Shown: positions 15 to 16,869 of the stretch, one piece after another
Position numbering within the stretch: the stretch's first letter is position 1
Layout of the letters: every line of letters begins with the position of its first letter
Assembly: GCA_014382245.1 (NCBI GenBank)
Contig: JACNKC010000057.1
Span: forward strand, 174 to 64,173
Direction: 5' to 3'
Origin: Pseudomonadota bacterium
Lineage (GTDB): Bacteria > Desulfobacterota > Binatia > UBA1149
DNA: 64,000 nt
Translations under genes and position numbers: made by a program
Notes under the pieces: generated by a model
Seen by the model: only the letters and a program-made list of their open reading frames with translations
Database searches by the model: none
What the model was told of the DNA's origin: nothing

Positions 15-917
15 TCAAGCCCCGCGGATGAACGAAGAGATCGCTCGCAGCGGCTGCCGAGGGTAGACCTGCCCCTGCTTGGGCGGCATGGAATTGTAAA
101 CGTAATCGAGCTCCAGGTCGGATAGCAGTCGACCCCGGTGCCGCCAGGTACCCCGTACGAGTACGCTCTCCATGTCGAGATTGATGGCAAACACTGACAA
201 TTGCTGACCGGGTCGAGGGGGGCCTGAGCTTGCCCCTGCCGGTGTACCCGACATCAACAGCCGGCCGCTATTGGCGGCGGTGCATGGCAGGGGAAGTGAT
301 AGGCGGGGGTAGCCGTTGTCGGCTATCCAGGATGCGAACTTGAGTGTTCGTGGAGATCGTAGCAGTCGCTGTGCCCAGTTAGACAAGGCCGGGACGCTGC
401 CGGCGTCGCTCACCCGTAGTGTTCGAGCAGCGGCCAGCGCGCCGGCACCAAGCGCCAGGCGCAGCCTGGGCAGCGCGTGGTTCCCGGCGTAGTGAACGAG
501 GTCCAGGTAGTGGACAGTGTGCACGCCGAAGTAGGCGTTGTAGCGAAACATGGGTTTACTGTTGTAAGCGTCGAGGTCGGCGCCCCCGCTTGCCTTCTCC
601 GCCCAGTGCGCCGTACCGCTCCAGCAGCGGCCCCTGCTGTTTACTATCATGAAGGCCGCGCGCGGGTCCGATTGCAGGTGACTCTTGCCCAGCCCCTCGC
701 AGAACTGACCGAACATGAGCCGCGTGGGATCCTTGGCGTTGAGCGAGGTGATGAGCGTCACGTGGGGCAGCCCCTCGGGATCGCGGGTGGCCAGCAGCCC
801 GATTTTGGCGTCGACGCCAAACGCGGCCATGGCGGCTTGGTCCAGGGCGAGAGGGGGAGTAAGCCCGTCGCGGTCGCCGTTACGTGTGGGCACAGTCTTG
901 TTGCTCCTGTTCATCAT
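15..917 (-). CDS. PNPOx-like FMN-binding split-barrel family protein (about 300 aa), last gene of the GRE operon
   Basis: ORF 15..917. The internal segment GLLATRDPEGLPHVTLITSL is typical of pyridoxamine-5'-phosphate-oxidase-like flavin-binding proteins. Its ATG overlaps the stop of the upstream activase (ATGA coupling at 914-917). It is long for this family, so the start or domain structure is uncertain. Confidence 0.45.
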   Translation of the reverse strand: MMNRSNKTVPTRNGDRDGLTPPLALDQAAMAAFGVDAKIGLLATRDPEGLPHVTLITSLNAKDPTRLMFGQFCEGLGKSHLQSDPRAAFMIVNSRGRCWSGTAHWAEKASGGADLDAYNSKPMFRYNAYFGVHTVHYLDLVHYAGNHALPRLRLALGAGALAAARTLRVSDAGSVPALSNWAQRLLRSPRTLKFASWIADNGYPRLSLPLPCTAANSGRLLMSGTPAGASSGPPRPGQQLSVFAINLDMESVLVRGTWRHRGRLLSDLELDYVYNSMPPKQGQVYPRQPLRAISSFIRGA

Positions 918-2020
918 CGTGCTGCTGGTGGCCTGGGGGTTCTCGCTCCAGTCTGTTTGCCGCCCGGATCACAGGGTACTTTCACCGGGCCGGTCACAAC
1001 GATCTTGTCGCCGTCCAGGCCGCACGAATGTGCCACCTGCTGCAGGTTTTCGAGCTCCCCGGCTGCCATGGTCTCGACACCTTCGAGCTCCCACCGGTTT
1101 CCCAACCGTCGGTACTTGTCGCCGGCCATGTTGTTGAAAGCGAGCAGCTCCCAGCGAGTGACGACGTCACCCAGCTTGCCGGCGATGAACTCTCCCAGCC
1201 CGCGCAGGTTTTCTTCGTTGGCGGTGAGCCCCGGCACCAGCGGCGTACGAATCCACAGAGAATCCCGCCTTTGCTGCTCCCTGAATCGCTGTGCGAGGGC
1301 CAGCACGTTGCGTAGGATTTCGTGGTTGGAGCGGCCAGTGAAATCCGCGTGGCGCGCAGAATCTATTTCCTTGAGGTCGTAGAGCACCAGGTCGGCGTGT
1401 CGCGTTGACCGCTCCAGTGCCTGCCACGTGCACTGCCCGCAGGTGTCGATCGCGGTGTGAATGCCTCGCTCGCGGCAGAGCCGCAACAGCTCGGAAGTGA
1501 ACGCGGGTCTAAGCGAGGGTTCACCGCCCGAGACGGTAACCCCGCCGCCCGAGCAGCCGTACCAGGCCAGGTCGCGGACGACCTCGTCGAAAACGTCGGC
1601 AGCCGATCTCCGTTGTCCCAGCAGTTCGAGCGCTGCCCAGGGGCAGGCGTCTGTGCACGCGGCGTTGCAGCCGTTGCCAGCGCTGCAAAGGGCGTGATCG
1701 ATGTGGATGGTGCCGCCCGTCGCTGTTAGTGCCCCTTTCAAACAGGCATCCTGGCACGGTGTAAGCGCTGGCCTGGCGTCGCCGTTGCTCCCGGTCGTGT
1801 TCTCCCGGGGTATGCACCCGCTGCACCTGGATTCGTGCCACGCCACGCACGTGGCCGACTCCACGCTCTCGGGGTTATGACACCACGTGCACTCCAGGCT
1901 GCAACCCTTGAGAAACACGGTCGTGCGTATGCCCGGACCGTCCTCGGTGGACATTCGCTGCAGGTTGAGCACCGTGGCCTCCGTGTTGTCACGGGCGGTC
2001 GACTGCCGGGAAACCATCAC
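914..2020 (-). CDS. Glycyl radical enzyme activating enzyme (radical SAM, with two auxiliary ferredoxin-like clusters)
   Basis: N-terminus VLNLQRMSTEDGPGIRTTVFLKGCSLECTWCHNPES carries the C-x3-C-x2-C radical-SAM motif and the GRE-activase DGPGIRTTVF box. It is followed by CSGC...CQDAC...CSAGNGCNAACTDAC auxiliary cluster motifs. It lies 10 bp downstream of the GRE gene. Confidence 0.85.
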   Translation of the reverse strand: MMVSRQSTARDNTEATVLNLQRMSTEDGPGIRTTVFLKGCSLECTWCHNPESVESATCVAWHESRCSGCIPRENTTGSNGDARPALTPCQDACLKGALTATGGTIHIDHALCSAGNGCNAACTDACPWAALELLGQRRSAADVFDEVVRDLAWYGCSGGGVTVSGGEPSLRPAFTSELLRLCRERGIHTAIDTCGQCTWQALERSTRHADLVLYDLKEIDSARHADFTGRSNHEILRNVLALAQRFREQQRRDSLWIRTPLVPGLTANEENLRGLGEFIAGKLGDVVTRWELLAFNNMAGDKYRRLGNRWELEGVETMAAGELENLQQVAHSCGLDGDKIVVTGPVKVPCDPGGKQTGARTPRPPAAR

Positions 2021-2030
2021 CGGGTCTACG

Positions 2031-4550
2031 CTAGGAATGCGCCTCCCTGGCTATGACTTCGTCCTGCAGTTCGCGGCCTATGCTGGTGAAGTAGGCGTTG
2101 TAGCCGGTGACGCGTACCAGCAGGTGGCGGTACTCGCCGGGGTTGAGCTGGGCGTCGCGCAGGGTGTCGGTGTCGATCACGTTGACCTGCAGGGCAGTGC
2201 CCCCGTTTTCGCAGTAGCCACGAAGAAACCCCTTGAACTTTTCGCGGTGCTCTGCGTCGCGCAGCAGCGATGGACTGAAGCTCATGGTATGGCTGGCGCC
2301 GTTGGGCAACGAGTTGCGGTAGTCCTGCCAATCTCCGTCGCTGCCCCGTCCACCCAGCGCCTGGCCAACCGAGTTGACGTTGGCCGTGGGGCCACTGGTA
2401 TCGGCGCCGTTGGACGGGCAAATGGCGTTGGACAGGAACCTGCCCCGCGGTCTTCCGTCGGCGCTCGCCGCCATGACGTAGCCGCCGTCCACCCAGTAGT
2501 TCCAGCTGAGCATGCCGGGACGAAAGCGCCGGCCGGTGCTGACCGTGCTGTGCTTCCAGGTTTCATCGGTCCACAGGTCCATCACGGCGCAGGCCATGGC
2601 GTCGGCCTCCTGTTGGTCGCGGCCGTACTTGGGCGCGCGCCAGCGGGCCCAGGCCTGCAGGGTCTCGTGCCCGTCCCAGTTGTCGCGCAGGGCCGCGGTC
2701 AGCTCCTCCATCGAGCACAGACCGCGGTCGTAGACCAGGTACTTTATCGCGCACAGCGAGTCCACGGTGGTGGCGAAGGTTACGCCCTCGAGCGTGGTAA
2801 GGTTGATCTCGGCGCCGCCGCGGGTGACGTCGGTGGCCGTTTCGGCGCAGCCGCCCACGAGGCAGGACAAGTAGGGCGTGGGGCTGAAGCGGGCGCGCAG
2901 GCTCTCGGTACGTTCGTAGAGGTCAACGCAACGTTGCACGATGAACTCGTTCTGCCTGCTGTAGGCCGCCCAGAAGTCTTCCCAGCGATCGAACTTCCCG
3001 GCGTCACCCGTGCGCGGGCCGTCTCGGCTGATTTCGCGGGACTCGCCGGTCACGGCGTCCATCGCGGGGGCGAGATCCTCGCCGCCTGTAAGCGCGAGTT
3101 CAACGGCCTTGAGCAGGTTGAGGTTACTGTCAACGGTTCCTGAACGGTCGTTGCCCACCATGGTGTTTTCCAGGCAGCCAACCGGCGCGTACTCGTGGAC
3201 GTTGTCCTCGTTTACGAGGTGCTGGTAGCCGGCCTCGGCGGCTTCGCGCATCATACCGGCCATGGATCTCTCGTCGAAGTTGAGCAGGAAGGGCGATCCG
3301 TGGCTGCGCGAGATCATGTCGACCACGGTGTCGAGCAGGCGGTTGGGAGAACCGCGGTGCAGCCGTACACTCGGCTTGGGCTCCAGTATGGGGCTCATCT
3401 CGTCGATGACCTCGAGGATGGCGTAGGTCAGGTCGTTGGTCGTGTCGACGCCCTCGGCTCCAATGCCCGAAAGCGTTATGAGCTGGCCGAAGCCGGAGGT
3501 GATTCCCTGGTTGCCGCCGATTTTTATCATGGCGTCGTAAGCCGTGTTGGCGTGTACCCAGAAGCAGCGCAGGATTTCTTTGCCGAACTCGCGATCCATT
3601 CCGTTCTCGATCGAGCGGCGCCAGCAGGGGTAGAGGTACTGGTCTACGCGGCCGAAGCTCAGGCCGGGGCCGGGGTAGTTTTCGTCGCTCATCACCAGCA
3701 TGTGGGTGAGCCACAGGGATTGTACTGCCTCCCAGAAGTTACGCGCGGGAAGCCAGGGCACGCGTTCCAGGTTGCGGGCCATGTTCTCGAGCTCCGCCCG
3801 GCGAGCCGGGTCGGCTTCGTCGCGGGCCTCGTCGCGGCAGCACCCGGCGTATTTTCCGGCCAATTCCCCGGGCATGAGAGCAGCAGTCATCATGGCGCGC
3901 AGTTGCGAGCCGGGTTGGCCGTTTTTAGCAGCGTGGTCGAGTGCGTCGTAGCGTTGTTCGAGGTCGCGGTGGATGGCTCCCCAGCCATGCTCGATCACCC
4001 GTGGGTAGTCGGGTAGCAAATGGCCGGAGGTAGCACCCGTGTTGCCGTAGCCGTGCTCGTGGAAATCCTTGATCGCGGCTCTCGTGCCGCGCGGGCCGTT
4101 GACCTCGGCATCGCGTCGACGGGCTTCCTCGCGGTTCCAGCAGCGCGAGGCGAGCAGGTTGAAGCGGGCCCCGGCTATGAGATCACCGGGCAGTATTTCC
4201 CGCGGCAACCTGTTGACCATTATTTCGCGGATCAGCCACGCGCGGCGCTCGGCGAGCCCCCGTTGCCAGAAGTCATCGGGCAGATCGACCCTGCGCGCAG
4301 CCTGCAGGGTGGAAGAGCGGAACGGTTGAAAGAACGCGTAGGTCTCCGGGACGATGTAGTAGGTGGTCTCGTCGTAGACCACGTCCCAGTCGGTACCGGT
4401 TGTCCAGCAACTGAACTCGTTGTTCCACTCGCGGTCTACGCCGCGAAAGTAGTAGTCGCGCAGCCACTGTGCGCGTGGGGACAACGCGCGGGGCGCGGGT
4501 ACAGCGGGTTGCTGTTCGCGGTGATTCGTTGCGTGTGCTGATCCTGCCAT
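2031..4550 (-). CDS. Glycyl radical enzyme (839 aa), eliminase/dehydratase-type rather than PFL-type; substrate unknown
   Basis: C-terminal glycyl radical motif LLVRVTGYNAYFTSI. Single-Cys thiyl loop PVGCLENTMVG (Cys-x-Glu, as in glycerol dehydratase/CutC/HypD/IslA-type GREs, not the CC of PFL). The size is typical of this class. An activase gene lies immediately downstream. Confidence 0.9.
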   Translation of the reverse strand: MAGSAHATNHREQQPAVPAPRALSPRAQWLRDYYFRGVDREWNNEFSCWTTGTDWDVVYDETTYYIVPETYAFFQPFRSSTLQAARRVDLPDDFWQRGLAERRAWLIREIMVNRLPREILPGDLIAGARFNLLASRCWNREEARRRDAEVNGPRGTRAAIKDFHEHGYGNTGATSGHLLPDYPRVIEHGWGAIHRDLEQRYDALDHAAKNGQPGSQLRAMMTAALMPGELAGKYAGCCRDEARDEADPARRAELENMARNLERVPWLPARNFWEAVQSLWLTHMLVMSDENYPGPGLSFGRVDQYLYPCWRRSIENGMDREFGKEILRCFWVHANTAYDAMIKIGGNQGITSGFGQLITLSGIGAEGVDTTNDLTYAILEVIDEMSPILEPKPSVRLHRGSPNRLLDTVVDMISRSHGSPFLLNFDERSMAGMMREAAEAGYQHLVNEDNVHEYAPVGCLENTMVGNDRSGTVDSNLNLLKAVELALTGGEDLAPAMDAVTGESREISRDGPRTGDAGKFDRWEDFWAAYSRQNEFIVQRCVDLYERTESLRARFSPTPYLSCLVGGCAETATDVTRGGAEINLTTLEGVTFATTVDSLCAIKYLVYDRGLCSMEELTAALRDNWDGHETLQAWARWRAPKYGRDQQEADAMACAVMDLWTDETWKHSTVSTGRRFRPGMLSWNYWVDGGYVMAASADGRPRGRFLSNAICPSNGADTSGPTANVNSVGQALGGRGSDGDWQDYRNSLPNGASHTMSFSPSLLRDAEHREKFKGFLRGYCENGGTALQVNVIDTDTLRDAQLNPGEYRHLLVRVTGYNAYFTSIGRELQDEVIAREAHS

Positions 4551-4566: not shown

Positions 4567-7479
4567 TCAGGCCGAGGCCATCTCGATCCGTGTCTCGCGG
4601 TCGCTCTGCCCGGGTTGCAGCGAGGCTGGTACCGGTCTCAAGTGATTGTAGCCGCCGGCCAGCTCCACCGGGTTGAGCGGGCTCGGTAGTACGTTGCGGT
4701 AGCCCTTGCCGCCGGGAAACTGGTAGTCCTCCCAGGCGTGGTAGAGGATCACCATGCCCGGGCGCACCGCGTTCGATAGCCGGGCCTTAACGCGGAACTC
4801 GCCCAGGTCGTTGAAGAGGCGCACCGTGTCGCCGTCCTTGATGCCGCGGCTGCGCGCGTCGGGTGCCGCTACGAAGGCGGCCGCTTCTCCGCGCTGCAGT
4901 TGCAGCAGCAGGTCGAGGTTGCGCCAGCCGGCGTGGATGCTCCAGCGGGTGTGGCCGCCGCTGAGCACCAGCGGGTAGTCTCCCCCCGGTCGGGGTACGG
5001 GCAGGTGGGCAGGCAGTTCCTGTCCGAGTTCGAGGTACAAGGGGTGGTCGATGTAAAACTGCACCCTGCGGGTGAGCGTGGGCCAGGGGCCGGGATTGCT
5101 GCGACGCCAACCGCGGTTGACCACCGGTTGGTCGGGCGTCACGTCCGTGGCATTGCCCAGGTTGAAAGGGTGCGTGCCTATTCCGGTTATTCTTTTGAAG
5201 CCATCGTGCCGGAGTTCTTCGAAACCGCCGTCCACGAAGCCGGTCTGTTTTACTATTTCGTGTGCGACCTGCGATTGGGCATGTTCGTCGAAGCGGCCGT
5301 TGAAGGTAAAGCGATGGCCGAAATCATCGAGTCTCTGCTCGTTGCCGTGGCGGTCGCGAAAAGAGGAGACGCCCCGTTCGCGCGCGCGTCGTTCCACCCA
5401 CCGGGCCAGCTCCGCGTGCATGTTCCACTCGGGCTTGCACTCGCCCAGGGGTTCGACGGCCGCCTGGGTGATGTGCAGGTAAGGTGAAAGCAGCGTGAAC
5501 CAGTTGGGTACGTCGTCTTTTTCGTAAGAAGACGCGCCTGGCAGCAGTATGTCGGACTGCAGGCAGGTGGTCGACATGCGCAGGTCGCAGGTGACTACCA
5601 GTTTTATTTTCGGCCAGGCCGTTTCGAGCAGGCGTTGCGCGCTACGCAGGCGCCTCAGTAAATTGCTGCCCGCGACCACGAGCACCCGCGGGGGATCTGC
5701 CGGCGGGCGCTTCTGCCAGTTGTTGTTGTAGGACTCCTCGACGTACTCGTCGATGGGGCGGGGCAGTCGCCTGCCGTGCTCGCCGTCGGTCACCCGGGAC
5801 AAACCGCCGTGGCGTCGCCAGTAAAGCACCGACGATACCACCGACGAATCGTTCATGTAGTCGCGAAAGGCGTCGTATACATAGCGCTCGGTACTGTCGC
5901 CCGCCAGTCGCCGGCCGAGCAGCGCGGGTAGGTGCTTGAGCTTGGCGGCCAGTCCCTCCCACTGGCTGGCGCCGACGGAATCCATGCCCTGCGTCCACAG
6001 GAACGGAGTTGTGTCGAAGCCGGCGCCCGGCTTTCCCACGTGCCCGCCCAGCATGAAAAGCAGCAGTTGCGCCCGCATGATGATGTCGCCGTTGTAGAGC
6101 TTGGGAATAGACGAACCGGCTACGCCGGCCATGGCGCGTGCCCCGGCCACCATATCGGCGAAACGGTGGATGGTTTCAGCCGAGCAGCCGCACAGCTCTG
6201 CCGCTTTTTTGGGCGTGTAGTCCGCGTCGAGTCGCTGGCGCAGGATTTCGAGTACCGGGCGCACGCGGACCGGTCCGTTGTTGGTGCTTACCGTGTAGTT
6301 GCCCTCGAGCGCGGGCGTAACCCCTGCCCAGTCCAGGTCGAAGGGAGCGGGGGAGGGCAGGCCGAGCGAGGGATCCCAGGCGTAGAACTGTTCCTGGCGG
6401 CCGCCTGTGACGAGATCGCTTTCGCGCAGGTAGTGGCCGTCGTCTTTTACCAGCAGTACGAGGTCGGTCTGCGAGCGTACGAAGTCAGCGTCTATGCTGC
6501 CTCGTTCCAATAGTACCTGGCAGGCGGCCAGGGCCAACGCGGCGTCGGTCCCGGGGCGCACGCCTATGAACAGGTCGCTGTGGATGCTCGAGGCCGAGTA
6601 GTCGGTGGCGATGGTGACCACGCGGGTGCCGTTGTAACGGGCCTCGTTGATGAAGTGGGCATTGGGAATCTGCGTGTAAACGGGGTTCGCACCCCAGACC
6701 AGTATGAGATCGGAGTGGAAGAAGTCGTCGGCCGAGCGTGACGATACCGGTGTGCCCATGGTCACCGCTGCGCCGGCCTGCCCGTCGTCGAGCTCGGTGT
6801 TGGTGTCGAGCTCTATGCCGTCGAGCATGTCGACCAGGCGCTGCACGCCCAGCCTCCACGTGGCCGACGCCAGGCTGCCACCGGGCTCAAGGGCCACCGA
6901 GTCGGGACCGGCGAGGGTCACCGCGTCGATGAGCTGGTCGGCGGTCTCGCGGTAGGCTTCGTCCCAGCTGATGCGCTTCCATTTGCCCGAGCCTCTGGGC
7001 CCGACACGTCGCAGCGGGTAGCGCAGGCGGTCGGGCGCGTACATGAGCGCGGAGTAGCAGGCGCCTTTCTGGCAGCCGCGGGGATTGAAGTCGGGTACCT
7101 CGTCGTTTACCGCGGGGTACTCGCCGGCCTGTTCCTCGCGCACGACCACCCCGTCGCGCACGTAGACGTCCCAGGAGCAGTTGCGCTGGTACCAGCAGTT
7201 GACGACGTGCGTACAGCGCACGCGCTTGTCCCAGGCAAGCCGTTGCAGGTAGACGTCCTTCCAGTCGCCGTAGCCCCTTGCTGGAGCGTGGGGCGCGACC
7301 GTACTCGCGGTTGACGTTTCGTATTGGCCGGCATCGCGGTGGCAAGCCGGGACCAGCCCGCCCAGCACGAGGATTGCTGCGCCGCTGCTGCCGCGCCTTA
7401 CGAATTCACGCCTGCTTATTGTTGTTGCCACGCTCGCATCCGTGCCACGTCGGCGCGGGGTGTCGCACACCCCACGCAT
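4567..7479 (-). CDS. TAT-exported molybdopterin (bis-PGD) oxidoreductase alpha subunit, type II DMSO-reductase/NarG-like clade
   Basis: Twin-arginine signal SRREFVRRGSSGAAILVLGG. N-terminal FS0 region GDWKDVYLQRLAWDKRVRCTHVVNCWYQRNCSWDVYVRDG closely parallels the NarG/EbdA/SerA block (W.D.YR..W.WDK.VRSTHGVNCTGSCSW.IYVK.G) and is followed by PRGCQKGACYS (NarG PRGCPRGAS-like). At 970 aa it matches the Mo-bisPGD catalytic subunit. No beta/gamma/delta subunit genes are nearby. Confidence 0.8.
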   Translation of the reverse strand: MRGVCDTPRRRGTDASVATTISRREFVRRGSSGAAILVLGGLVPACHRDAGQYETSTASTVAPHAPARGYGDWKDVYLQRLAWDKRVRCTHVVNCWYQRNCSWDVYVRDGVVVREEQAGEYPAVNDEVPDFNPRGCQKGACYSALMYAPDRLRYPLRRVGPRGSGKWKRISWDEAYRETADQLIDAVTLAGPDSVALEPGGSLASATWRLGVQRLVDMLDGIELDTNTELDDGQAGAAVTMGTPVSSRSADDFFHSDLILVWGANPVYTQIPNAHFINEARYNGTRVVTIATDYSASSIHSDLFIGVRPGTDAALALAACQVLLERGSIDADFVRSQTDLVLLVKDDGHYLRESDLVTGGRQEQFYAWDPSLGLPSPAPFDLDWAGVTPALEGNYTVSTNNGPVRVRPVLEILRQRLDADYTPKKAAELCGCSAETIHRFADMVAGARAMAGVAGSSIPKLYNGDIIMRAQLLLFMLGGHVGKPGAGFDTTPFLWTQGMDSVGASQWEGLAAKLKHLPALLGRRLAGDSTERYVYDAFRDYMNDSSVVSSVLYWRRHGGLSRVTDGEHGRRLPRPIDEYVEESYNNNWQKRPPADPPRVLVVAGSNLLRRLRSAQRLLETAWPKIKLVVTCDLRMSTTCLQSDILLPGASSYEKDDVPNWFTLLSPYLHITQAAVEPLGECKPEWNMHAELARWVERRARERGVSSFRDRHGNEQRLDDFGHRFTFNGRFDEHAQSQVAHEIVKQTGFVDGGFEELRHDGFKRITGIGTHPFNLGNATDVTPDQPVVNRGWRRSNPGPWPTLTRRVQFYIDHPLYLELGQELPAHLPVPRPGGDYPLVLSGGHTRWSIHAGWRNLDLLLQLQRGEAAAFVAAPDARSRGIKDGDTVRLFNDLGEFRVKARLSNAVRPGMVILYHAWEDYQFPGGKGYRNVLPSPLNPVELAGGYNHLRPVPASLQPGQSDRETRIEMASA

Positions 7480-7600: not shown

Positions 7601-8848
7601 TCAGCGCAGGTTGGCCAGGTCGATGCTCTTGGGGAAAATCCCGCGGTTGGCGCGGTCGCGCTCCTCCAATCGCTCAATTTCAGCTTCGGGCAGGCCGGCT
7701 TCGGCCATCAGTTCACGGGCGTGCTCTCCTAGCACTGGAGAGGCTGAGCCCAGCCCGGGCTCCTGCCCGTCGAAGGCCAGCGGCGGTCGCGGCAAGCGGC
7801 AGCTTCCGCCCTCGGGGTGCTCGGCTTCGACCAGGGTGTTGCCGTGTCGGACCTGGGGATCCTCGTGAACGCGGTTCACCGGGTTCACCCGGGCCGAGGG
7901 CACGTCAAGCTCGTCGAGCAAGCGGCACAGCGATTCGGTGTCGCGGTCGGCGAGTACGGCGTCCATCTCCTCGGCCAGCTGCTGCCTGTTGGCCACGCGC
8001 CCCCCGAAATTGGCAAACCTGGGATCGGCGTGCAGCTGGCAGCCAAGCGCCTCGCACAGGGCGGCAAAGTCGCTGTCGACTATCAGTATGGTCGACACGT
8101 GGCCGTCGCTGGTGGCAAACAACGGGAAGTAATCGGCAAGTGCCCCCTGTTCGTTTATCTCGTCGCCCAGCAGGGTGTGCTGCCACATGGCGTCGGGCCA
8201 CAGGAAGTACAGCCCCGCGTCCATCATCGACACGGGCAGGAACTGGCCCCGGCCGGTACGCTCGCGCTGAAGCAGCGCTGCGGTTACGGCCTGGGCGGCC
8301 GTCATGCCCGAAACCTTGTCGAACAGCACTGTGCGCACGTTGGCCGGCCTGTCGCCGCCGCCCTGCGCCCCGGCCATGCCGATGGTGGCCTGTACCAGGG
8401 GATCGTACACGCGGCGGTGGACGTAGGGCCCCGACTGCCCGTAGCCAGTGATAGACCCGTAGACGAGGCGGGGATTGACGGCTGCCAGCGACTCGTAGTC
8501 GACACCCAGCTTTGCCGTGACCCCGGGGCGGTAGTTTTCGATAAGCACGTCGGCGGTTTCTACCAGACGCCGCAGGATGGCCGCGTCGTCTGCCTGCTTG
8601 AGGTCCAGGGCTATCGAGCGCTTGTTGCGGTTGAGCACCGAGAACTGTGCGGCGACCCCGTTCCGGTTGTTGCCCATGAAACGCGCGAGGTCACCGGTAC
8701 CCGGCGGCTCAACCTTGACCACGTCGGCGCCCTGGTCGGCCAGTATCATGCCGGCAAGCGGACCAGACACAGTGGAGGTGAGTTCGATGACGCGGTAGCC
8801 GGCCAGCGGCCCAGCGACGGTACGTTGACCATATCCTTTATTCGCCAT
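7601..8848 (-). CDS. CoA-transferase family III (CaiB/BaiF/Frc-like) protein
   Basis: GPLAGYRVIELTSTVSGPLAGMILADQGADVVKVEPPG...IENYRPGV...GSITGYGQSGPY are family-III CoA-transferase hallmarks. Start set at internal ATG (MANKGYGQRTVAG, 416 aa) rather than the 603-aa ORF whose N-terminal extension is low-complexity. There is a 120 bp gap to the Mo-enzyme gene on the same strand. Confidence 0.8.
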   Translation of the reverse strand: MANKGYGQRTVAGPLAGYRVIELTSTVSGPLAGMILADQGADVVKVEPPGTGDLARFMGNNRNGVAAQFSVLNRNKRSIALDLKQADDAAILRRLVETADVLIENYRPGVTAKLGVDYESLAAVNPRLVYGSITGYGQSGPYVHRRVYDPLVQATIGMAGAQGGGDRPANVRTVLFDKVSGMTAAQAVTAALLQRERTGRGQFLPVSMMDAGLYFLWPDAMWQHTLLGDEINEQGALADYFPLFATSDGHVSTILIVDSDFAALCEALGCQLHADPRFANFGGRVANRQQLAEEMDAVLADRDTESLCRLLDELDVPSARVNPVNRVHEDPQVRHGNTLVEAEHPEGGSCRLPRPPLAFDGQEPGLGSASPVLGEHARELMAEAGLPEAEIERLEERDRANRGIFPKSIDLANLR

Positions 8849-8933: not shown

Positions 8934-10700
8934 ATGCTCCACGCGATTCCGGGTTGGCGCCAGCATAAGCTGGCTGTTTCGGTGATCTGCGTGGCTCTTA
9001 CCGCCGCTGCTGCTTGCACGCGGACACCGGCTACCACGGTGTTCGTGGCCCGTAGTGTTGTGACCATGGACCCGGCGAATCCACGGGCCGAGGCCGTGGC
9101 GGTGGCCGAGGGAAAGATCCTCGCGGTGGGCAGTCGCGAGGAGCTCTCGCCGCTGGCCGGCTGCAAGGGCTGCGTGATCGACAAGCGCTTTGCCGACGAT
9201 GTGCTGTTGCCCGGCTTCGTGGAGAACCACCTGCACCCCGACATGGCAGCCATGCTGCTGGCGTTACCGATAACGGCACCGTTTGACTGGGAACTGCCGG
9301 GCGGAACGATCAAGGGCATACGCGGCAGGCAGGCTTTTCTCGACAGGTTGCGCGAACTCGATGCCGCTCTTGGCGACGGCTCTCTTGAAGACGGTGGCCA
9401 GCCGCTGATCACCTGGGGCTACCACGATTTCTTTCACGGTGCGGGACTCGACCGAGACGCGCTCGACGCGGTGTCGACCACGCGCGCAGTGGTGGCCTGG
9501 CACCGTTCGTTTCACGAGGTCATAGCCAATTCGGTCGCGCTCGAGTGGATGGGAGTCACCCGCGAGACGGCGGCGCGGCTGCCCGGTGTCGCTTTGCGCG
9601 CAGACGGCGAGCCCACCGGCCGCCTGTCGGAGCTGGGGCTGCTGGTCGCGCTCGGTACGCTGTCCCCGGTGGTGCTGGGCGAAGAGGCCATGGATCGCGG
9701 TCACTCCATCGTGCGGCAGATGATACACCGCGGCGGCATCACCACGGTTGTCGACATGGCCTACGGCATGTTCAGCGACGAGCGCGAGTGGCCGATTCTC
9801 AAGCGCAACCTCGACCGCGACGACGTGCCTTTTCGCACCCGCCTGGTGCCTCTGCCCTTCGCCCTGGGACGCGAGTGGGGCGAGGATCTGTTCGACAGGG
9901 TAGAGGCCCTGCCGCAACGCAACAGTGAGCGCCTGGCCTTCGTGCGGCAGGTCAAGATGATAGGAGACGGCGCGTTCTTTTCCCTGTTGATGCGAATGCA
10001 ACCGCCGGGATACCTGGAGGGGGGAGTGGGCGAGTGGAACACCGAGCCGGGGCGCATGGTCGAGGGTCTCGCGCCCTGGTGGAAAGCGGGCTACCAGCTG
10101 CACGTGCACAGCAACGGCGACGCGGCCCAGGTGGCGGTGCTCGACGCGCTCGATCAGCTGCAGGCCGAGCACCCGCGAGAGGATCACCGCTTTACCTTTC
10201 ATCACTTTGCGCAGGCGCGCCCGAACGAGCTGGATCGCATGGCCGCGGCCGGTGCGTTGGTGTCAGCCAACGTGTACTACAACTACTTCATGGCCGACAT
10301 TTACGCCGAGCGCGGGCTTGGCCTGCCGCGCGCCGAGAAGATCACGCCGCTGGGGTCGCTGGTCAAGCGCGGGGTGAAGGTGTCGCTGCATTCCGACCTG
10401 CCCATGGGGCCGGCGCGCCCGCTGCTCGCGGCCTGGGCCGCTGCCACTCGGCTGACCCATGAAGGCAAGACCCGTGGCGCCGACGAGGCGCTTACCCCGG
10501 GGCAGGCCCTGCTCGCGATCACCAGCGACGCGGCCTACGCGGTGGGTATGGAAGACGAGGTTGGCAGCATACGAGTGGGCCTCAGGGCCGACTTCGTGGC
10601 GTTGCCCGACGATCCGTTGTCGGTGGAGCTAGACGAGTGGCCCAACATTATCCCGGTGGCCACCGTGCTCTCGGGTAAAGTTTACCCGGTCAGGCAATAG
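8934..10700 (+). CDS. Amidohydrolase family (amidohydrolase-3-like) metallo-hydrolase, probable lipoprotein/secreted
   Basis: N-terminal hydrophobic signal ending LTAAAAC (lipobox-like). The metal-binding motif ENHLHPD and the overall layout match amidohydrolase-3-type enzymes. It is divergent from the CoA-transferase/GRE operon. Confidence 0.7.
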   Translation: MLHAIPGWRQHKLAVSVICVALTAAAACTRTPATTVFVARSVVTMDPANPRAEAVAVAEGKILAVGSREELSPLAGCKGCVIDKRFADDVLLPGFVENHLHPDMAAMLLALPITAPFDWELPGGTIKGIRGRQAFLDRLRELDAALGDGSLEDGGQPLITWGYHDFFHGAGLDRDALDAVSTTRAVVAWHRSFHEVIANSVALEWMGVTRETAARLPGVALRADGEPTGRLSELGLLVALGTLSPVVLGEEAMDRGHSIVRQMIHRGGITTVVDMAYGMFSDEREWPILKRNLDRDDVPFRTRLVPLPFALGREWGEDLFDRVEALPQRNSERLAFVRQVKMIGDGAFFSLLMRMQPPGYLEGGVGEWNTEPGRMVEGLAPWWKAGYQLHVHSNGDAAQVAVLDALDQLQAEHPREDHRFTFHHFAQARPNELDRMAAAGALVSANVYYNYFMADIYAERGLGLPRAEKITPLGSLVKRGVKVSLHSDLPMGPARPLLAAWAAATRLTHEGKTRGADEALTPGQALLAITSDAAYAVGMEDEVGSIRVGLRADFVALPDDPLSVELDEWPNIIPVATVLSGKVYPVRQ

Positions 10701-11775
10701 CAGCGGCAAGCGCGGCGGCGGCATCGGCCATGGCCTGGCGCGCCCCGCGGCTCACCTGGGTGGTGTTGGCAAAGCCGTGCACTTGGCCTTCGACACGGCA
10801 CAGCGTTACCGGCACTCCGGCCAGTTCGAGTCGCTCGGCGTATGCTTCGCCCTCGTCTCTGAGGGGGTCGAAGCCGGCCGTGGTGACGTAAGCCGGTGGC
10901 AGGCCCGAAAGGTCTTCTGCCAGCAGCGGCGAAGCCGAGGGGTCTTCGACGGCCTGCTGGCGGTCACCCGTGTAGTGGCGGATGTACCACTCCATCTGCG
11001 AGGCGGTCAGAAAAAAACCGTCGGCGAACAAGCGGTACGATTCGCTGCGGGCCGACAGGTCGGTGACCGGGTAGATTGGCAGCTGGAAGGCCGGCGAGGG
11101 TCCGCCGTCGCGCGTGGCGCGCAGCGAAACCGAGGCCGCCAGGTTGCCACCGGCGCTGTCGCCGCCAACCGCCACCCGCGATGCGTTGATGGCCAGGCGC
11201 TCGGCGTTTTCGAGCGCCCAGCGAAACGCCGCCAGGGCGTCGTCGGTCGCCGCCGGAAAGGGATGTTCGGGGGCCAGCCGGTAGTCCACCGATAATACCT
11301 TGACGCCGGCCTTCTCTGCGAGGAATCGGCAGGGCTGGTCATGGCTGTCGATGCTGCCCACCACCCATCCTCCACCGTGGTAGTAGACCAGCAGGCCGCC
11401 GCCATCGGCGCAAGCGTGGGGCACGTAGAGTCGCGCGGCGAGTTCGCCGTCCGCGCCAGCGCAGGAGAGTTCCTCGACGCGTTGCATGGCTATGGGTTCA
11501 CCGCTTGCGACAGCCGCGCCGCTTTCGATGTGCTGCCGTACCTCGGCCACGGTCAGGTCGTCGTATGATGGGTGATCGTCGAACGACATCGCGAGCAGCA
11601 GCAGTTGCACGTCTGCGTCCAGCGTGAGGCCATCCACGCGGGTGGAACTGCCACCGGCGAGCAGGAGCTGCAGGCGTTCGGGCAGAGCCATCATCGATCG
11701 CAGCAACAGGCGTTGGGCTTTTTCAGCGAGGCCGAGCGGGCGTGGTTCCATGGTGGTCATCCTCCGCGGCAACAC
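10690..11775 (-). CDS. Alpha/beta hydrolase, HSL-family esterase/lipase (Aes-like)
   Basis: Contains the HGGG oxyanion motif (LLVYYHGGGWVVGS) and the nucleophile elbow GDSAGG, both typical of hormone-sensitive-lipase-family esterases. Confidence 0.8.
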   Translation of the reverse strand: MLPRRMTTMEPRPLGLAEKAQRLLLRSMMALPERLQLLLAGGSSTRVDGLTLDADVQLLLLAMSFDDHPSYDDLTVAEVRQHIESGAAVASGEPIAMQRVEELSCAGADGELAARLYVPHACADGGGLLVYYHGGGWVVGSIDSHDQPCRFLAEKAGVKVLSVDYRLAPEHPFPAATDDALAAFRWALENAERLAINASRVAVGGDSAGGNLAASVSLRATRDGGPSPAFQLPIYPVTDLSARSESYRLFADGFFLTASQMEWYIRHYTGDRQQAVEDPSASPLLAEDLSGLPPAYVTTAGFDPLRDEGEAYAERLELAGVPVTLCRVEGQVHGFANTTQVSRGARQAMADAAAALAAAIA

Positions 11776-11852
11776 GATTACGATATCGCGGAGGGCGAGA
11801 CCAGGGCCGGCGGGTAGTTACATATCGGGGACAAGATGATAAAAGGCTTGGG

Positions 11853-12674
11853 GTGGAAGTTCTTCTTACAGGCGCGGCCCTCGGGGCCGAAGTAAGGGGG
11901 CTTGATCTCACCCGCGAATTGACGGGTACAGAGTTAGCAGCGGTGACGGCGGCGCTGGTCGAACACAAGGTGCTGTTTTTTCGCGACCAGCCTCTTGGGC
12001 CGGCCGACCACCACCGCTTTGCGTCATACTTCGGGCCGCTGCAACGCCACCCCGCGTTTCCGCACGTGGACGACTACCCCGAGCTCACCATACTCGAAAG
12101 CGACCGCGCGCGTCCTTCAAAAATAGACAAGTGGCACTGCGACATGACTTACCTCGAGTGCCCACCGCTGGGCAGCGTGCTCAGGGCTACCGTCATTCCT
12201 GACAAGGGCGGCGACACGATGTGGATGAATCTCGAGGCGGCCTGGCAGGCGCTGCCCCTGGACTTGCAGCAAAGGTTGGCCCAAATGCAGGCCGAGCACA
12301 GCTTTGCGCATGGCTACCGAGAGAGCCTGGCCGAACCCGGCGGCAGGGACCGTCTCGCGCGGGCCGTGGCCGACAACCCGCCCGTGCTGCACCCGGTGAT
12401 GCGTCGTCACCCGGTCAGCAAGCGGCCCTGCTTGTTCGTCAACAGCCTGTTCACCACGCGCCTGCTTGGCATGGAAGAACGCGAGAGCGAGCAACTGCTG
12501 GCGCGGCTGTACGCGCACATCGAGAAGCCGGAGTTTCGGTACCGCTTCAGTTGGGAGGTCGACTCGATCGCTTTCTGGGACAACCGAGCCACGCAGCATA
12601 AGCCGGTACAGGATTGGTGGCCGGCGCGGCGTTGTCACCAGCGCATTACCATAGAGGGCGACAGACCGGTGTGA
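11853..12674 (+). CDS. TauD/TfdA-family Fe(II)/2-oxoglutarate dioxygenase (taurine dioxygenase-like)
   Basis: Aligns by eye along its length with E. coli TauD, including WHCDMTYLECPP (TauD WHTDVTF), the GGDTMW metal-binding region and C-terminal WDNRATQHK. Start moved to in-frame GTG at 11853 (MEVLLTGAALGAEVRGLDLT matches the TauD N-terminus, with an AAGG RBS). The ORF finder start was 11742. Confidence 0.8.
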   Translation: MEVLLTGAALGAEVRGLDLTRELTGTELAAVTAALVEHKVLFFRDQPLGPADHHRFASYFGPLQRHPAFPHVDDYPELTILESDRARPSKIDKWHCDMTYLECPPLGSVLRATVIPDKGGDTMWMNLEAAWQALPLDLQQRLAQMQAEHSFAHGYRESLAEPGGRDRLARAVADNPPVLHPVMRRHPVSKRPCLFVNSLFTTRLLGMEERESEQLLARLYAHIEKPEFRYRFSWEVDSIAFWDNRATQHKPVQDWWPARRCHQRITIEGDRPV

Positions 12675-12676
12675 AG

Positions 12677-13414
12677 TCAGTCGCTGTCGGCGGCGCTGCG
12701 AAAAAACTCTAGCGCCCACCGGGCGATGACCCCGCCGTCGGTGTCCTCGGCCAGCGAAGCCAGTGACCGGTTCCACAGATCATCCGCGTACAACCCGCGC
12801 CTGCTTTCGTACAAGCCCAGCGCGTACTCGGGGCTGAACTCGGGATGGCCCTGGCAACTCATCACGTGCTTGCCGATGCGGTACATCGAAACAGGGCAGG
12901 AGTCACTGGAGCCCACGAGGCTGGCACCGTCAGGCAGGCGCGTCACCTGGTCCCGGTGGCTGTGTATGAGCTGCAGCTTGCCGTGCGTGCCGGCAACGGA
13001 ATCTCCGCCGGCAGCGGCCCAGGGAAACGGCGACTCGATGCGCGTGCTGTGCACACCGAGCGTCCACCCCTGCTCGGCCAGCTCAGCGCGGCCGCCCAGT
13101 GCGCGGGCTACCAACTGGTGGCCAAAGCATACGGCGAACAGCGGTCGGCTCGCTTCGGCCAGCCGTACGACGTAGCTCTCGAGCGGAGCAATCCACTCCA
13201 ATTCGTCGTAAACACTGTGCCGGCCGCCGGTCATCAGGTAGCCATCGCAATCATCGATCGAGTCGGGAAACTCGCCGAGCCGCACATCCCAGCAAGCGAA
13301 TTGCAGAGAGGGATCCACGCCACCGAGCAGGCGGGCGAACATGTCGCTATACTGGCCGTGCGTGGCGGCGAGCGCGGGCTGGACTGAGTCGGTGAGAAGT
13401 ATGCCTATCTTCAT
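12677..13414 (-). CDS. Class I glutamine amidotransferase-like protein (GATase1 domain)
   Basis: Nucleophile motif FAVCFGHQ and a downstream His/Glu (SCQGHPEF) match the GATase1 Cys-His-Glu triad. Its size is typical of standalone GATase1/GMP-synthase-like domains. Confidence 0.7.
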   Translation of the reverse strand: MKIGILLTDSVQPALAATHGQYSDMFARLLGGVDPSLQFACWDVRLGEFPDSIDDCDGYLMTGGRHSVYDELEWIAPLESYVVRLAEASRPLFAVCFGHQLVARALGGRAELAEQGWTLGVHSTRIESPFPWAAAGGDSVAGTHGKLQLIHSHRDQVTRLPDGASLVGSSDSCPVSMYRIGKHVMSCQGHPEFSPEYALGLYESRRGLYADDLWNRSLASLAEDTDGGVIARWALEFFRSAADSD

Positions 13415-13426
13415 GGGGGGAACAGT

Positions 13427-14848
13427 TTGAACAGCATAGACGCTACGGTCAACGAAGTCCTTGGTCCCCTGGCCGACGCCATGGCCGCGGTAGTTTTCTA
13501 CGCTGTACCCATAGGCGACGCGCAGGTGCCGCTCATCGTGGCCTGGTTGATAGGCGCGGGCCTGTTTTTCACCTTCTACCTGCGCTTCATCAATTTTCGT
13601 GGCATGGCCGAGGGCCTGCGCATAGTTAGCGGCAAGCGCCGCTCTCCGGGTTCGAGCGGGGAGATCAGTCCCTGGGGAGCGCTTTCGACGGCAGTGTCGG
13701 GCACCGTGGGCATTGGCAACATAGGCGGCGTGGCCGTGGCGATTTCAATGGGTGGCCCCGGGGCCACCTTCTGGCTGCTGGTGGCCGGGCTGCTGGGCAT
13801 GGCCAGCAAGTGTGCCGAGTGCGTGCTGGGGGTACGCTACCGCCAGGTCGACGAGAACGGCCAGGTGTCGGGCGGCCCGATGTACTACCTGCGCGAGGGG
13901 TTCGGCGAGCGCGGCTGGCCGCTGGTGGGCCGAGCCCTGGGTGGGTTCTACGCGGTGGCCATCGTGCAGGGCTGCCTGGGCGCGGGCAACATGTTCCAGA
14001 GCAACCAGGTTTTCGAACAACTGCTGGTCGTGACCGGCGGTGCCGACGGCCCCATGGCCGGGCACTCACTGGAGGTGGGCCTGCTGCTGGCCGTGGCCGT
14101 GGGCCTGGTGCTGGTGGGCGGCATACAATCCATAGCCCGTGTCACCACTCGCCTGGTGCCGTTCATGGCCTTGTTCTACTGCCTGGGCGCGCTGTTGGTC
14201 ATCGGCCTTAACTTCGACAAGGTCCCGGGCGCGTTTGCTTCGATATGGCACGGGGCGTTCTCGCCCGAGGGCATAAGCGGCGGCGTGCTGGGCGTGATGA
14301 TGCTCGGGTTTCGCCGCGCGGCTTTCTCAAACGAGGCTGGACTCGGCTCGGCAGCCATCGCCCACTCGGCGGTAAACACCCACCACCCTGCTACCGAGGG
14401 CCTGGTCGGCTTGCTCGAACCGTTTATCGACACTGTCGTGATCTGCACCATGACGGCGCTGGTTATTCTCACCACGGTGTACGAACCATCGCTGGCGGGC
14501 AGCGGCGTGCAGGGCGTGGCGCTTACGTCGCGTGCTTTTGAGAGCACGCTGTCGTGGGCGCCGGCAGCCGTTGGCCTGGCCGCGCTGCTGTTCGCGTACT
14601 CCACGATGATCGCCTGGGGTTACTACGGGCTCAAGGGTTGGACCTACCTGGTGGGCGACTCGCGCGTGGCCGATCTTTCTTTCAAGCTGGTCTACTGCGC
14701 TTTCGTCGTGCTGGGCTGTGTGCTCGATCTTGACGCCGTGCTTACCATGTCCGACGCGCTGTTGTTCGTAGTGGCAGTGCCTAACGTCATAGGACTGTAC
14801 GTGTTGGCGCCGCGCATACGCGAGAGCCTCGACGACTACTTCTCCTGA
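13427..14848 (+). CDS. Alanine/glycine:cation symporter (AGCS family) transporter
   Basis: Polytopic membrane protein. The N-terminus (VNEVLGPLADAMAAVVFYAVPIG...VAWLIGAGLFFTFYLRFINFR) and the GIGNIGGVAVAI segment match AGCS/AlsT-like transporters. It has a TTG start with a GGGGGG RBS. Confidence 0.8.
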   Translation: MNSIDATVNEVLGPLADAMAAVVFYAVPIGDAQVPLIVAWLIGAGLFFTFYLRFINFRGMAEGLRIVSGKRRSPGSSGEISPWGALSTAVSGTVGIGNIGGVAVAISMGGPGATFWLLVAGLLGMASKCAECVLGVRYRQVDENGQVSGGPMYYLREGFGERGWPLVGRALGGFYAVAIVQGCLGAGNMFQSNQVFEQLLVVTGGADGPMAGHSLEVGLLLAVAVGLVLVGGIQSIARVTTRLVPFMALFYCLGALLVIGLNFDKVPGAFASIWHGAFSPEGISGGVLGVMMLGFRRAAFSNEAGLGSAAIAHSAVNTHHPATEGLVGLLEPFIDTVVICTMTALVILTTVYEPSLAGSGVQGVALTSRAFESTLSWAPAAVGLAALLFAYSTMIAWGYYGLKGWTYLVGDSRVADLSFKLVYCAFVVLGCVLDLDAVLTMSDALLFVVAVPNVIGLYVLAPRIRESLDDYFS

Positions 14849-14904
14849 GTGTTGCTGGCGGGTTTGCCTGAGGGTCGCGGGCGGGCTGTGCCCGTCCGCC
14901 GTGG

Positions 14905-16653: not shown

Positions 16654-16869
16654 GCTGCAGCCGTTTCGTGCGTGCCAGGGTCGGGCGGTGCGACGCCGGG
16701 CCACGGGCAGGAGCATGACCCACCGGGCGGAGGCTTGTCAAGGTTGTATCGTTAGGTGGTGGGTGGCTTTGTTGCCTTTACCGCCAATGAAGGTGACATT
16801 CTCCTGGCCGGGTATATTCCGGGTACCCGGGTCGCGAGCTCACGTGGCCCGGCGCAACTGGGGGAGCAC

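Follow-up and report, generated by a model that had tools for sequence, protein, structure and literature searches.

A glycyl radical enzyme clade with its own N terminus, probably of the eliminase/isomerase branch, is encoded across phyla with its activase and a tandem split-barrel protein

A 64,000-nt stretch of contig JACNKC010000057.1 (assembly GCA_014382245.1), called the window here and used for all coordinates, encodes a glycyl radical enzyme (GRE) on its minus strand. On balance, we think that this GRE is probably a catalytically competent member of a large family in the Cys-x-Glu (CXE), or eliminase/isomerase, branch, and that it works with an activase and a split-barrel partner protein encoded directly after it. 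Competence is predicted because all of the radical machinery is present: Gly816, Cys459, and the adjacent activase. As judged from its sequence, the protein appears to be a bona fide CXE-branch GRE; what would set it apart is its N terminus, its pocket, and a conserved partner of a kind new to GREs. Invariance of GRE residues below refers to A2, a family profile of 37 sequences aligned to solved GREs; the residue lists of known enzymes come from PMC7077986 and PMC13450708. The genes and sites are as follows.

2031..4550, minus strand: GRE of the GCLEN / RVTGYNAYF clade, 839 amino acids (aa), from translation, Pfam, and homologues
3165..3179, minus strand: Cys loop G458-C459-L460-E461-N462, with the thiyl-radical Cys and the Glu of CXE, invariant in A2
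4020..4022, minus strand: His177, invariant in A2, at the position of glycerol dehydratase (GD) His164, HypD His160, and the YbiW His
2100..2114, minus strand: glycyl radical motif R813-V-T-G816-Y817, aligned with RVAGY/RIAGY of solved GREs
914..2020, minus strand: GRE-activating radical S-adenosylmethionine (SAM) enzyme with a ferredoxin-like, Cys-rich insert; it follows the GRE stop after 10 bp
15..917, minus strand: partner of two fused split β-barrels (PNPOx/flavin mononucleotide [FMN]-binding-like), 300 aa, matching PNPOx_N at 30.6 bits in its N-terminal half

The GRE gene and its motifs are real. The open reading frame (ORF) at 2031-4550 is uninterrupted and translates to 839 aa, in a window of about 65% G+C throughout. 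The translation contains APVGCLENT and LLVRVTGYNAYF, which fix Cys459, Glu461, and Gly816 by position. The assignment is far beyond chance, because Pfam finds the PFL-like domain (PF02901) with an E value of 3.7e-109 and the Gly_radical domain (PF01228) with an E value of 4.1e-21. An identical protein is on record from a metagenome-assembled genome (MAG) labelled 'Proteobacteria bacterium', and homologues of the same length are also public. In a profile-to-PDB alignment, Cys459 and Glu461 fall on the Cys and Glu of GD, HypD, CutC, IslA, and IseG, and Cys459 is invariant in A2. The motif GC[LM]EN occurs in 120 of the 120 closest family matches and R[VI]TGY in 119. Across 122 full-length representatives drawn from neighboring GRE sequence space, the Cys loop reads CVE in 61, CIE in 7, and CLE in 6, and the x of RVxG is Ala in 55, Ser in 21, and Thr in 10. 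A first-pass annotation of this DNA had pointed to the Leu and the Thr as signs of a distinct subfamily; they are minority variants and not unique, yet they are diagnostic of the clade.

A homologue search against 5.8 billion proteins yielded over 120 protein clusters that are 67-74% identical to the GRE, all from metagenomes or MAGs and nearly all unnamed or generically named. When genomes were scanned, one per species, 29 loci came up at 61-73% identity, again all in MAGs. These span Binatia, Syntrophales/Syntrophaceae, Desulfobacterales, Anaerolineae/Chloroflexia, Spirochaetota/Leptospirales, and Clostridia/Eubacteriales. The presence of the family in at least six phyla at 61-74% identity would imply strong constraint together with horizontal spread. 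Metagenomes of sediment, groundwater, and bioreactors are rich in the family, which has no cultured organism, because all homologues come from MAGs. In a library clustered at 50% identity, a single full-length representative, 63% identical, stands for the whole family. A few sister clusters, 34-49% identical, also have the special N-terminal segment of about 170 residues. Beyond them lie ordinary GREs at 30-35% identity. The family therefore appears to be a discrete clade with its own N-terminal architecture, because identity drops to the ordinary GREs and these align only from about residue 170. The Pfam PFL-like model likewise covers the protein only from residue 173 onward.

We then compared gene neighborhoods by all-against-all clustering of the ORFs from the 29 genome loci and three metagenome contexts. 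The activase adjoins the GRE in all 29 loci. The split-barrel partner is present in 28 of the 29 testable loci, counting 27 plus a frameshifted copy in L033. The conserved unit, kept across phyla, is thus GRE, activase, and tandem split-barrel protein, in that order. In the window, the activase scores 277 bits against TIGR02494 (cut-off, 174) and has a CX3CX2C motif, and the start of the partner gene overlaps the activase stop by 4 nt. The first-pass annotation, in reading the context, had passed over this pair, which is its informative part. In 11 loci, the gene directly upstream encodes a GntR/FadR-type regulator. Beyond the activase, the partner, and this regulator, neither the clustering nor a Pfam count over the two closest genes on either side found a recurring neighbor among the 29 loci; this count gave LysE three times, Glt_symporter three times, a formate/nitrite transporter twice, and singletons for the rest. 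The regulators are generically NanR/LldR/PdhR/GlcC-like, all far under the cut-offs, and we dropped the naming of their ligand for that reason. Their type is a weak hint at a small hydroxy- or oxo-carboxylate ligand. Taken with the occasional amino acid/carboxylate transporters, it weakly favors a small hydroxylated carboxylate or an amino acid as the substrate.

The partner is well conserved, with a mean column identity of 55%, and its homologues share contigs with members of the GRE family. An AlphaFold2 (AF2) model (predicted local distance difference test [pLDDT] score, 87.8) contains two tandem split β-barrels. Foldseek matched it to HupZ, a PNPOx-like protein, an F420 reductase, and the Desulfovibrio vulgaris FMN-binding protein, each covering one barrel, with target-normalized template modelling (TM) scores of 0.63 to 0.76. 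The modelled partner looks like a single-chain version of the dimeric split-barrel proteins that bind flavin, deazaflavin, or haem. Its strongest motif is PMFRYNAYFG.HT. The PMFRYNAYFG segment (residues 121-131), the most conserved element of the partner, is an exposed loop of low confidence in the AF2 model.

The pentapeptide YNAYF is common to this loop and to the GRE glycyl loop RVTGYNAYF (residues 813-821, window 2088-2114). In shuffles, a post hoc comparison, the partner held a 5-mer from the 15-residue glycyl loop in 253 of 200,000 cases, and any 5-mer shared with the whole GRE arose in 21%. The shared YNAYF could be chance or a loop mimic. Covariation between the glycyl loop and the RYNAYFG loop gave no signal, the GRE loop being invariant.

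Two relatives of the family bear on what the partner does. A sister GRE family, P0248 (L041:572-10394), is 41% identical and keeps GCLEN and RVTGY. Directly upstream of it is a single-barrel PNPOx_N gene that is weakly similar to the first barrel of the partner (E = 6e-7). Its cluster is glycerol/glycerol-3-phosphate-like, with an FGGY kinase, a GlpA-like DAO/BFD protein, a flavin adenine dinucleotide (FAD) oxidoreductase, DUF1667, and a C-terminal fragment of glycerol-3-phosphate dehydrogenase, and it may offer a clue to what the clade catalyzes. A paralogue, P0242 (L042:260-3669), is 49% identical, with Phe in place of the thiyl Cys (SGFHE) and a degenerate glycyl motif, RIFGQ. It has no activase gene, and a tandem partner homologue (33% identity), with a decayed RYNAYFG loop, still follows it. 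P0242 and its partner homologue look like a GRE-derived pseudoenzyme pair. Because P0242 keeps the partner homologue without an activase, this arrangement speaks against a partner that serves the activase alone and for one that works with the GRE scaffold itself. Because the split-barrel association recurs both in the sister family and in this Cys-less, activase-less paralogue, it suggests that the partner is a real functional partner of the GRE. We infer that the two act together, the partner being an accessory subunit or else catalyzing the adjoining step.

The nearest parallels to the partner are the accessory subunits of other GREs (HPAD gamma, BSS beta/gamma, and MASS delta), which are likewise small, co-encoded, conserved proteins, and like them the partner may be bound as a subunit. 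Those already known are small proteins of the Fe-S or rubredoxin-like type, according to the 2026 GRE review (PMC13450708). In contrast, the partner is a tandem PNPOx/FMN-binding fold of about 290 aa with no Cys among its invariant columns.

To place the GRE among characterized families, we compared it with NCBIfam (June 2026), PDB chains (2026), and the 2026 review (PMC13450708). It reached no curated NCBIfam equivalog cut-off, PFL2-3 being nearest. The scores in bits, each against its cut-off, were 377.7 against 678.2 for PFL2-3 (TIGR01774), 346 against 1100 for HypD (NF043068), 340 against 1000 for HpsG (NF048011), 279 against 1050 for CutC (TIGR04394), 209 against 1100 for IAD, 162 against 1150 for HPAD, and 71 against 994 for PFL (TIGR01255). 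The eliminase families thus rank top in NCBIfam, at 279-346 bits compared with 209 for IAD, 162 for HPAD, and 71 for PFL. A profile search of the PDB gave the same ranking, with eliminases at 300-369 bits compared with 246 for AAD, 210 for MasD, 206 for BSS, and 160 for HPAD. Identity to solved GREs is about 30% or less, with 28% to Escherichia coli YbiW by direct BLASTP. No characterized family came above 50% identity, which agrees with the first-pass placement of the protein in a distinct subfamily without an assigned substrate. The AF2 model of the GRE (pLDDT, 79.5) is weakest at YPGPG 292-296, at NQGIT 347-351, and at the glycyl loop, and we dropped it for reading the pocket because of this low confidence. 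The best Foldseek matches of the GRE were propanediol, hydroxyproline, and glycerol dehydratases, PflD, and CutC. Eliminases and isomerases all had TM scores of about 0.7, with no discrimination among the eliminases.

Several memberships could be rejected. As the first-pass annotation had recognized, the single Cys followed by Glu marks a GRE that is not PFL: VGCLEN has no Cys-Cys pair. Nor is it an X-succinate synthase, as it has Glu461, lacks small-subunit genes in its cassette, and scores much lower against BSS and MasD (only HPAD is lower). An aminoacyl radical enzyme (AARE) is also rejected, since Gly816 is retained and the Thr of RVTGY occupies the x position before the Gly; in AAREs, as the review states, the Gly that would bear the radical is replaced by Ala, Ser, or Thr (PMC13450708).

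Mapping of the pockets, which the first-pass annotation had proposed, found that the residues of HypD, CutC, and IslA/HpsG are not matched. HypD (PDB 6VXC/6VXE) is the best single-sequence PDB match, at 264 bits. It shares CXE and has His160 at the position of His177; we also list as a likeness that it is a GRE whose product requires just one further enzyme. However, none of its Asp278, Ser334, Asp339, Phe340, Tyr450, and Thr645 is conserved. Asp278 falls in the invariant YPGPG loop, and the others become Thr351, Gln356, Leu357, Asn476, and Trp683, respectively. As HypD illustrates, binding of a carboxylate does not require an Arg (PMC7077986). In CutC, the β1 Asp of the solved chain aligns with His177; we take it to be Asp216, which would contact the trimethylammonium group. 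CutC Tyr506 becomes Asn476 and Ile700 becomes Trp683, and Thr502 alone is kept, as Thr472. The C-S lyases IslA, IseG, and HpsG share CXE and have profile scores of 331-337 bits, and the hairpin that follows their Cys loop resembles that of the GRE (N-R-D in IslA compared with N-D-R). Their sulfonate-anchoring triad, given as Arg189-Gln193-Arg678 of IslA in part of the review (PMC13450708), is replaced by Ala173, His177, and Gly679.

GD (PDB 1R8W) and propanediol dehydratase (PD; PDB 5I2G and 9RCO) are the top-ranked Foldseek matches. They share the 10-stranded barrel, the glycyl loop, the Cys-x-Glu loop, the β1 His, and an adjoining activase with a ferredoxin domain. Of the GD pocket, His164 and Glu435 are kept. 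GD His281 and Ser282 fall in the YPGPG loop; Ser282, Phe333, and Tyr339 correspond to Gly, with the loops uncertain by one or two residues. Tyr640 becomes Leu681, and Asp447 becomes Val473 with Asp474 one position off in an uncertain alignment. Identity to GD and PD is only about 21-22% in the Foldseek structural alignment, and TIGR01774 is below its cut-off. The N-terminal segment of about 170 aa is also unlike theirs, a split-barrel partner stands in the GRE unit, and no microcompartment or 1,3-propanediol dehydrogenase genes are there. The YbiW/PflD isomerases, which open the ring of 1,5-anhydrohexitol-6-phosphate, share CXE, the β1 His, and a comparable logic of C-O heterolysis, as described in part of the review (PMC13450708). 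They differ in their N terminus and partner and in their aldolase, phosphatase, and phosphotransferase system context, which the GRE lacks. Overall, the substrate-defining residues of every characterized eliminase family appear not to be kept. The invariant pocket candidates in A2 are His177, Asn347/Gln348/Thr351, Gln356, Thr472, Asp474, Asn476, and Trp683. These are polar and mostly uncharged and would suit a small polar substrate. The invariant acidic residues are Asp474 and Asp289/Glu290.

Because of the invariant His177 and the score ranking, these alignments favor placing the GRE with the eliminases and isomerases that cleave C-O or C-N bonds. In GD and HypD, His164 and His160 either act as the acid for the leaving hydroxyl or position it. 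We suggest that the activase would install the radical on Gly816, which would generate a thiyl radical on Cys459. The thiyl would remove a hydrogen from a small polar substrate at a carbinol carbon, and Glu461 would deprotonate the hydroxyl to give a ketyl radical. His177 may then help protonate the vicinal O (or N) leaving group as the bond breaks heterolytically. In this scenario, the product radical would regain H from Cys459 and yield a carbonyl product, for a net dehydration/deamination or a ring-opening isomerization. Because no aldehyde-handling enzyme or microcompartment is conserved nearby, the context suggests a ketone, keto-acid, or imine product and not a free aldehyde.

Several points weigh against this assignment. 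The substrate-contact positions are unlike those of all characterized eliminases, so the chemistry could differ. Alignments at YPGPG 292-296 and NQGIT 347-351 are uncertain by one or two residues, the AF2 model is poor there, and two alignments disagree on GD Phe333 versus HypD Ser334. No aldehyde- or ketone-processing enzyme is conserved near the GRE in the loci examined, and an elimination product is therefore not corroborated by context. The partner is absent from one locus, L031, and its binding of flavin or another cofactor is read from its modelled fold. Finally, CXE, which the first-pass annotation had taken as the signature of eliminases, is broader. Passages of the review assign it to GRE eliminases and to isomerases (YbiW, PflD, and HplG) and list Cys503/Glu505 in the decarboxylase HPAD (PMC13450708). 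The eliminase class proposed there is thus too narrow and only one of several options, although CXE together with His177 fits a C-O or C-N cleaving eliminase or isomerase and the score ranking favors this group.

Other chemistries were weighed against a C-O cleaving eliminase or isomerase. A C-N cleaving lyase with CutC-like logic would turn an amino alcohol or a β-hydroxy amino acid into ammonia or an amine plus a carbonyl. This is unlikely, although CXE is present, CutC Thr502 aligns with the invariant Thr472, and a long CutC is the top profile-to-PDB match, at 369 bits. The Glt_symporter and LysE neighbors (three of each), an aminotransferase beside one locus, and the invariant acids Asp474 and Asp289/Glu290, which could hold an ammonium group, also fit it. 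However, the CutC Asp position is His177, as in the C-O cleavers; Tyr506 and Ile700 are replaced, the CutC cut-off is far from reached, and no microcompartment or aldehyde dehydrogenase genes lie nearby. A decarboxylase of the HPAD/IAD/AAD kind, acting on an aryl- or alkyl-acetate, is very unlikely. The Glu of the HPAD loop would be in keeping with it, as would the catalytically essential Glu502 of IAD, whose placement on the Cys loop the review passage does not state (PMC13450708). The FadR-type regulators suggest a carboxylate ligand, and one locus (L038) has a PaaK-like ligase, an ACT domain protein, and an aldehyde:ferredoxin oxidoreductase. Against this, the decarboxylase scores lie under those of the eliminases in both searches, there is no HPAD-type small subunit, and the PaaK/aldehyde:ferredoxin oxidoreductase context is in that single locus only. 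The invariant pocket (His177, Gln348, Thr351, Gln356, Thr472, Asp474, and Asn476) is polar, unlike an aromatic-binding site.

The role of the partner also allows other readings. GRE activases need a one-electron donor, and the partner might be only that: a dedicated low-potential FMN donor for the activase, a flavodoxin substitute with no role in the reaction. The Foldseek matches, which include the small D. vulgaris FMN-binding protein and F420/FMN reductases, are consistent with such a role. We nevertheless hold it to be distinctly unlikely, since P0242, without an activase gene, keeps the partner homologue directly downstream, and since the most conserved partner element is an exposed loop and not an obvious flavin site. 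To our knowledge, other GRE families need no dedicated donor. A bolder proposal is that the partner is obligate and bound and that the pair forms a new GRE class. The radical would then be coupled to flavin or another cofactor, or gated by PMFRYNAYFG, an invariant loop that would copy GYNAYF from the glycyl loop of the GRE, in a reaction other than plain elimination on a substrate new for GREs, and the pairing would survive in the Cys-less, activase-less paralogue as a non-radical derivative. We give this proposal only a small chance.

Two further genes lie upstream of the GRE in the window, so that the minus-strand order is CoA-transferase, molybdoenzyme, GRE, activase, and PNPOx_N-like protein.

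4567..7479, minus strand: twin-arginine translocation (Tat)-signal type II dimethyl sulfoxide-reductase-family alpha subunit, EbdA-like, 970 aa, ending 16 bp upstream of the GRE start; neighbor only
7601..8848, minus strand: family III CoA-transferase, 415 aa (PF02515, E = 1.8e-108); neighbor only

The molybdoenzyme scores 797 bits against TIGR03479 (cut-off, 985) and 552 bits against EbdA, and no beta or gamma subunit gene lies beside it. For the CoA-transferase, NCBIfam comes closest with succinate-glutarate CoA-transferase, which it matches at 244 bits (cut-off, 750) and thus without reaching a specific equivalog. EbdA-type enzymes and BbsEF-type CoA-transferases occur in hydrocarbon pathways, and the GRE might accordingly belong with these two genes in an anaerobic hydrocarbon or alkyl-chain pathway. 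The 16-bp spacing fits this idea, as does a promoter-like site upstream of the molybdoenzyme with none between it and the GRE. However, neither gene is beside the GRE in the 29 other genomes or the metagenome contexts examined, and the association is confined to this genome's own contigs. The molybdoenzyme is marked by its Tat signal as periplasmic and lacks an adjacent beta/gamma gene, and the GRE has Glu461, no X-succinate-synthase small subunits, and low BSS/MasD scores. A hydrocarbon pathway is therefore highly improbable. The molybdoenzyme and the CoA-transferase are lineage-specific neighbors outside the conserved unit, and inference of a substrate from them was dropped because the context is not conserved. 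The first-pass annotation had called the CoA-transferase adjacent, but the 970-aa molybdopterin oxidoreductase intervenes. Its hint at an acid substrate, drawn from the CoA-transferase, loses its support, and so does its use of the unusual genomic context as a pointer, since these genes stand beside the GRE in this genome only. The N-terminal Cys motif of the molybdoenzyme is H-x3-C-x5-C; in NarG/EbdA-type enzymes it is H-x3-C-x3-C.

Neither this GRE family nor a GRE with a split-barrel partner is described in NCBIfam (June 2026), the PDB, the 2026 review, or full-text literature searches. Literature searches on GREs in Binatia and on a GRE with a PNPOx or split-barrel partner gave nothing relevant. 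Uncharacterized GRE clades are not rare. This one stands out as abundant, compact, and cross-phylum, with a partner that has no precedent in described GRE systems. Its compact, self-contained cassette could be expressed as it stands. The split-barrel partner could bring to light a novel kind of accessory subunit or a novel radical-flavin coupling, and discovery of the substrate would add a step of anaerobic carbon cycling in uncultured lineages such as Binatia. The idea that a mobile, self-contained cassette might serve in anti-phage defence was set aside; PADLOC gave only weak generic radical-SAM similarity.

Some loci depart from the simple cassette. In two Spirochaetota loci, an extra ORF of 176-196 aa lies between the GRE and the activase (L017:12551-13081 and L018:11234-11824). 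A 146-aa ORF directly follows the partner in L017 (14987-15427), L018 (13727-14167), and L035 (14974-15414). The L017 and L018 inserts had no match in NCBIfam, and the L017 insert and the L017 146-aa ORF had none in Pfam or NCBIfam. In L038 (2129-16292), an outer-membrane-like ORF, a major facilitator superfamily transporter, and a small PilZ-domain protein separate the GRE-activase pair from the partner. The locus continues with the aldehyde:ferredoxin oxidoreductase, a DHDPS-family aldolase, a 2-hydroxyacid dehydrogenase, the PaaK-like ligase, and the ACT domain protein, and it is the sole extended metabolic context seen. In L039 (5417-12320), the family GRE is broken into two ORFs, by either frameshift or misassembly. 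Directly after the split-barrel gene there comes a second, ordinary GRE (GCVEPT, RVAGY, 818 aa), with apparently a single activase for both.

Two further GRE-like proteins, P0244 (L044:6753-10156) and P0247 (L046:7001-10355), are 39-43% identical and have neither the Cys nor any of the C-terminal glycyl-radical domain. A radical-SAM activase-like gene follows them, three glycosyltransferase genes lie beside them, and a Spo0A_C-domain gene is nearby. In the window itself, positions 8934-16716 hold genes for an Amidohydro_3 protein, an α/β hydrolase, a TauD-family dioxygenase, a GATase, an Na+/alanine symporter, and a PETase/chlorophyllase-like hydrolase. These are functionally unrelated and not conserved with the GRE. 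TauD-family dioxygenases are O2-dependent, and the presence of one near the GRE suggests a facultative lifestyle.

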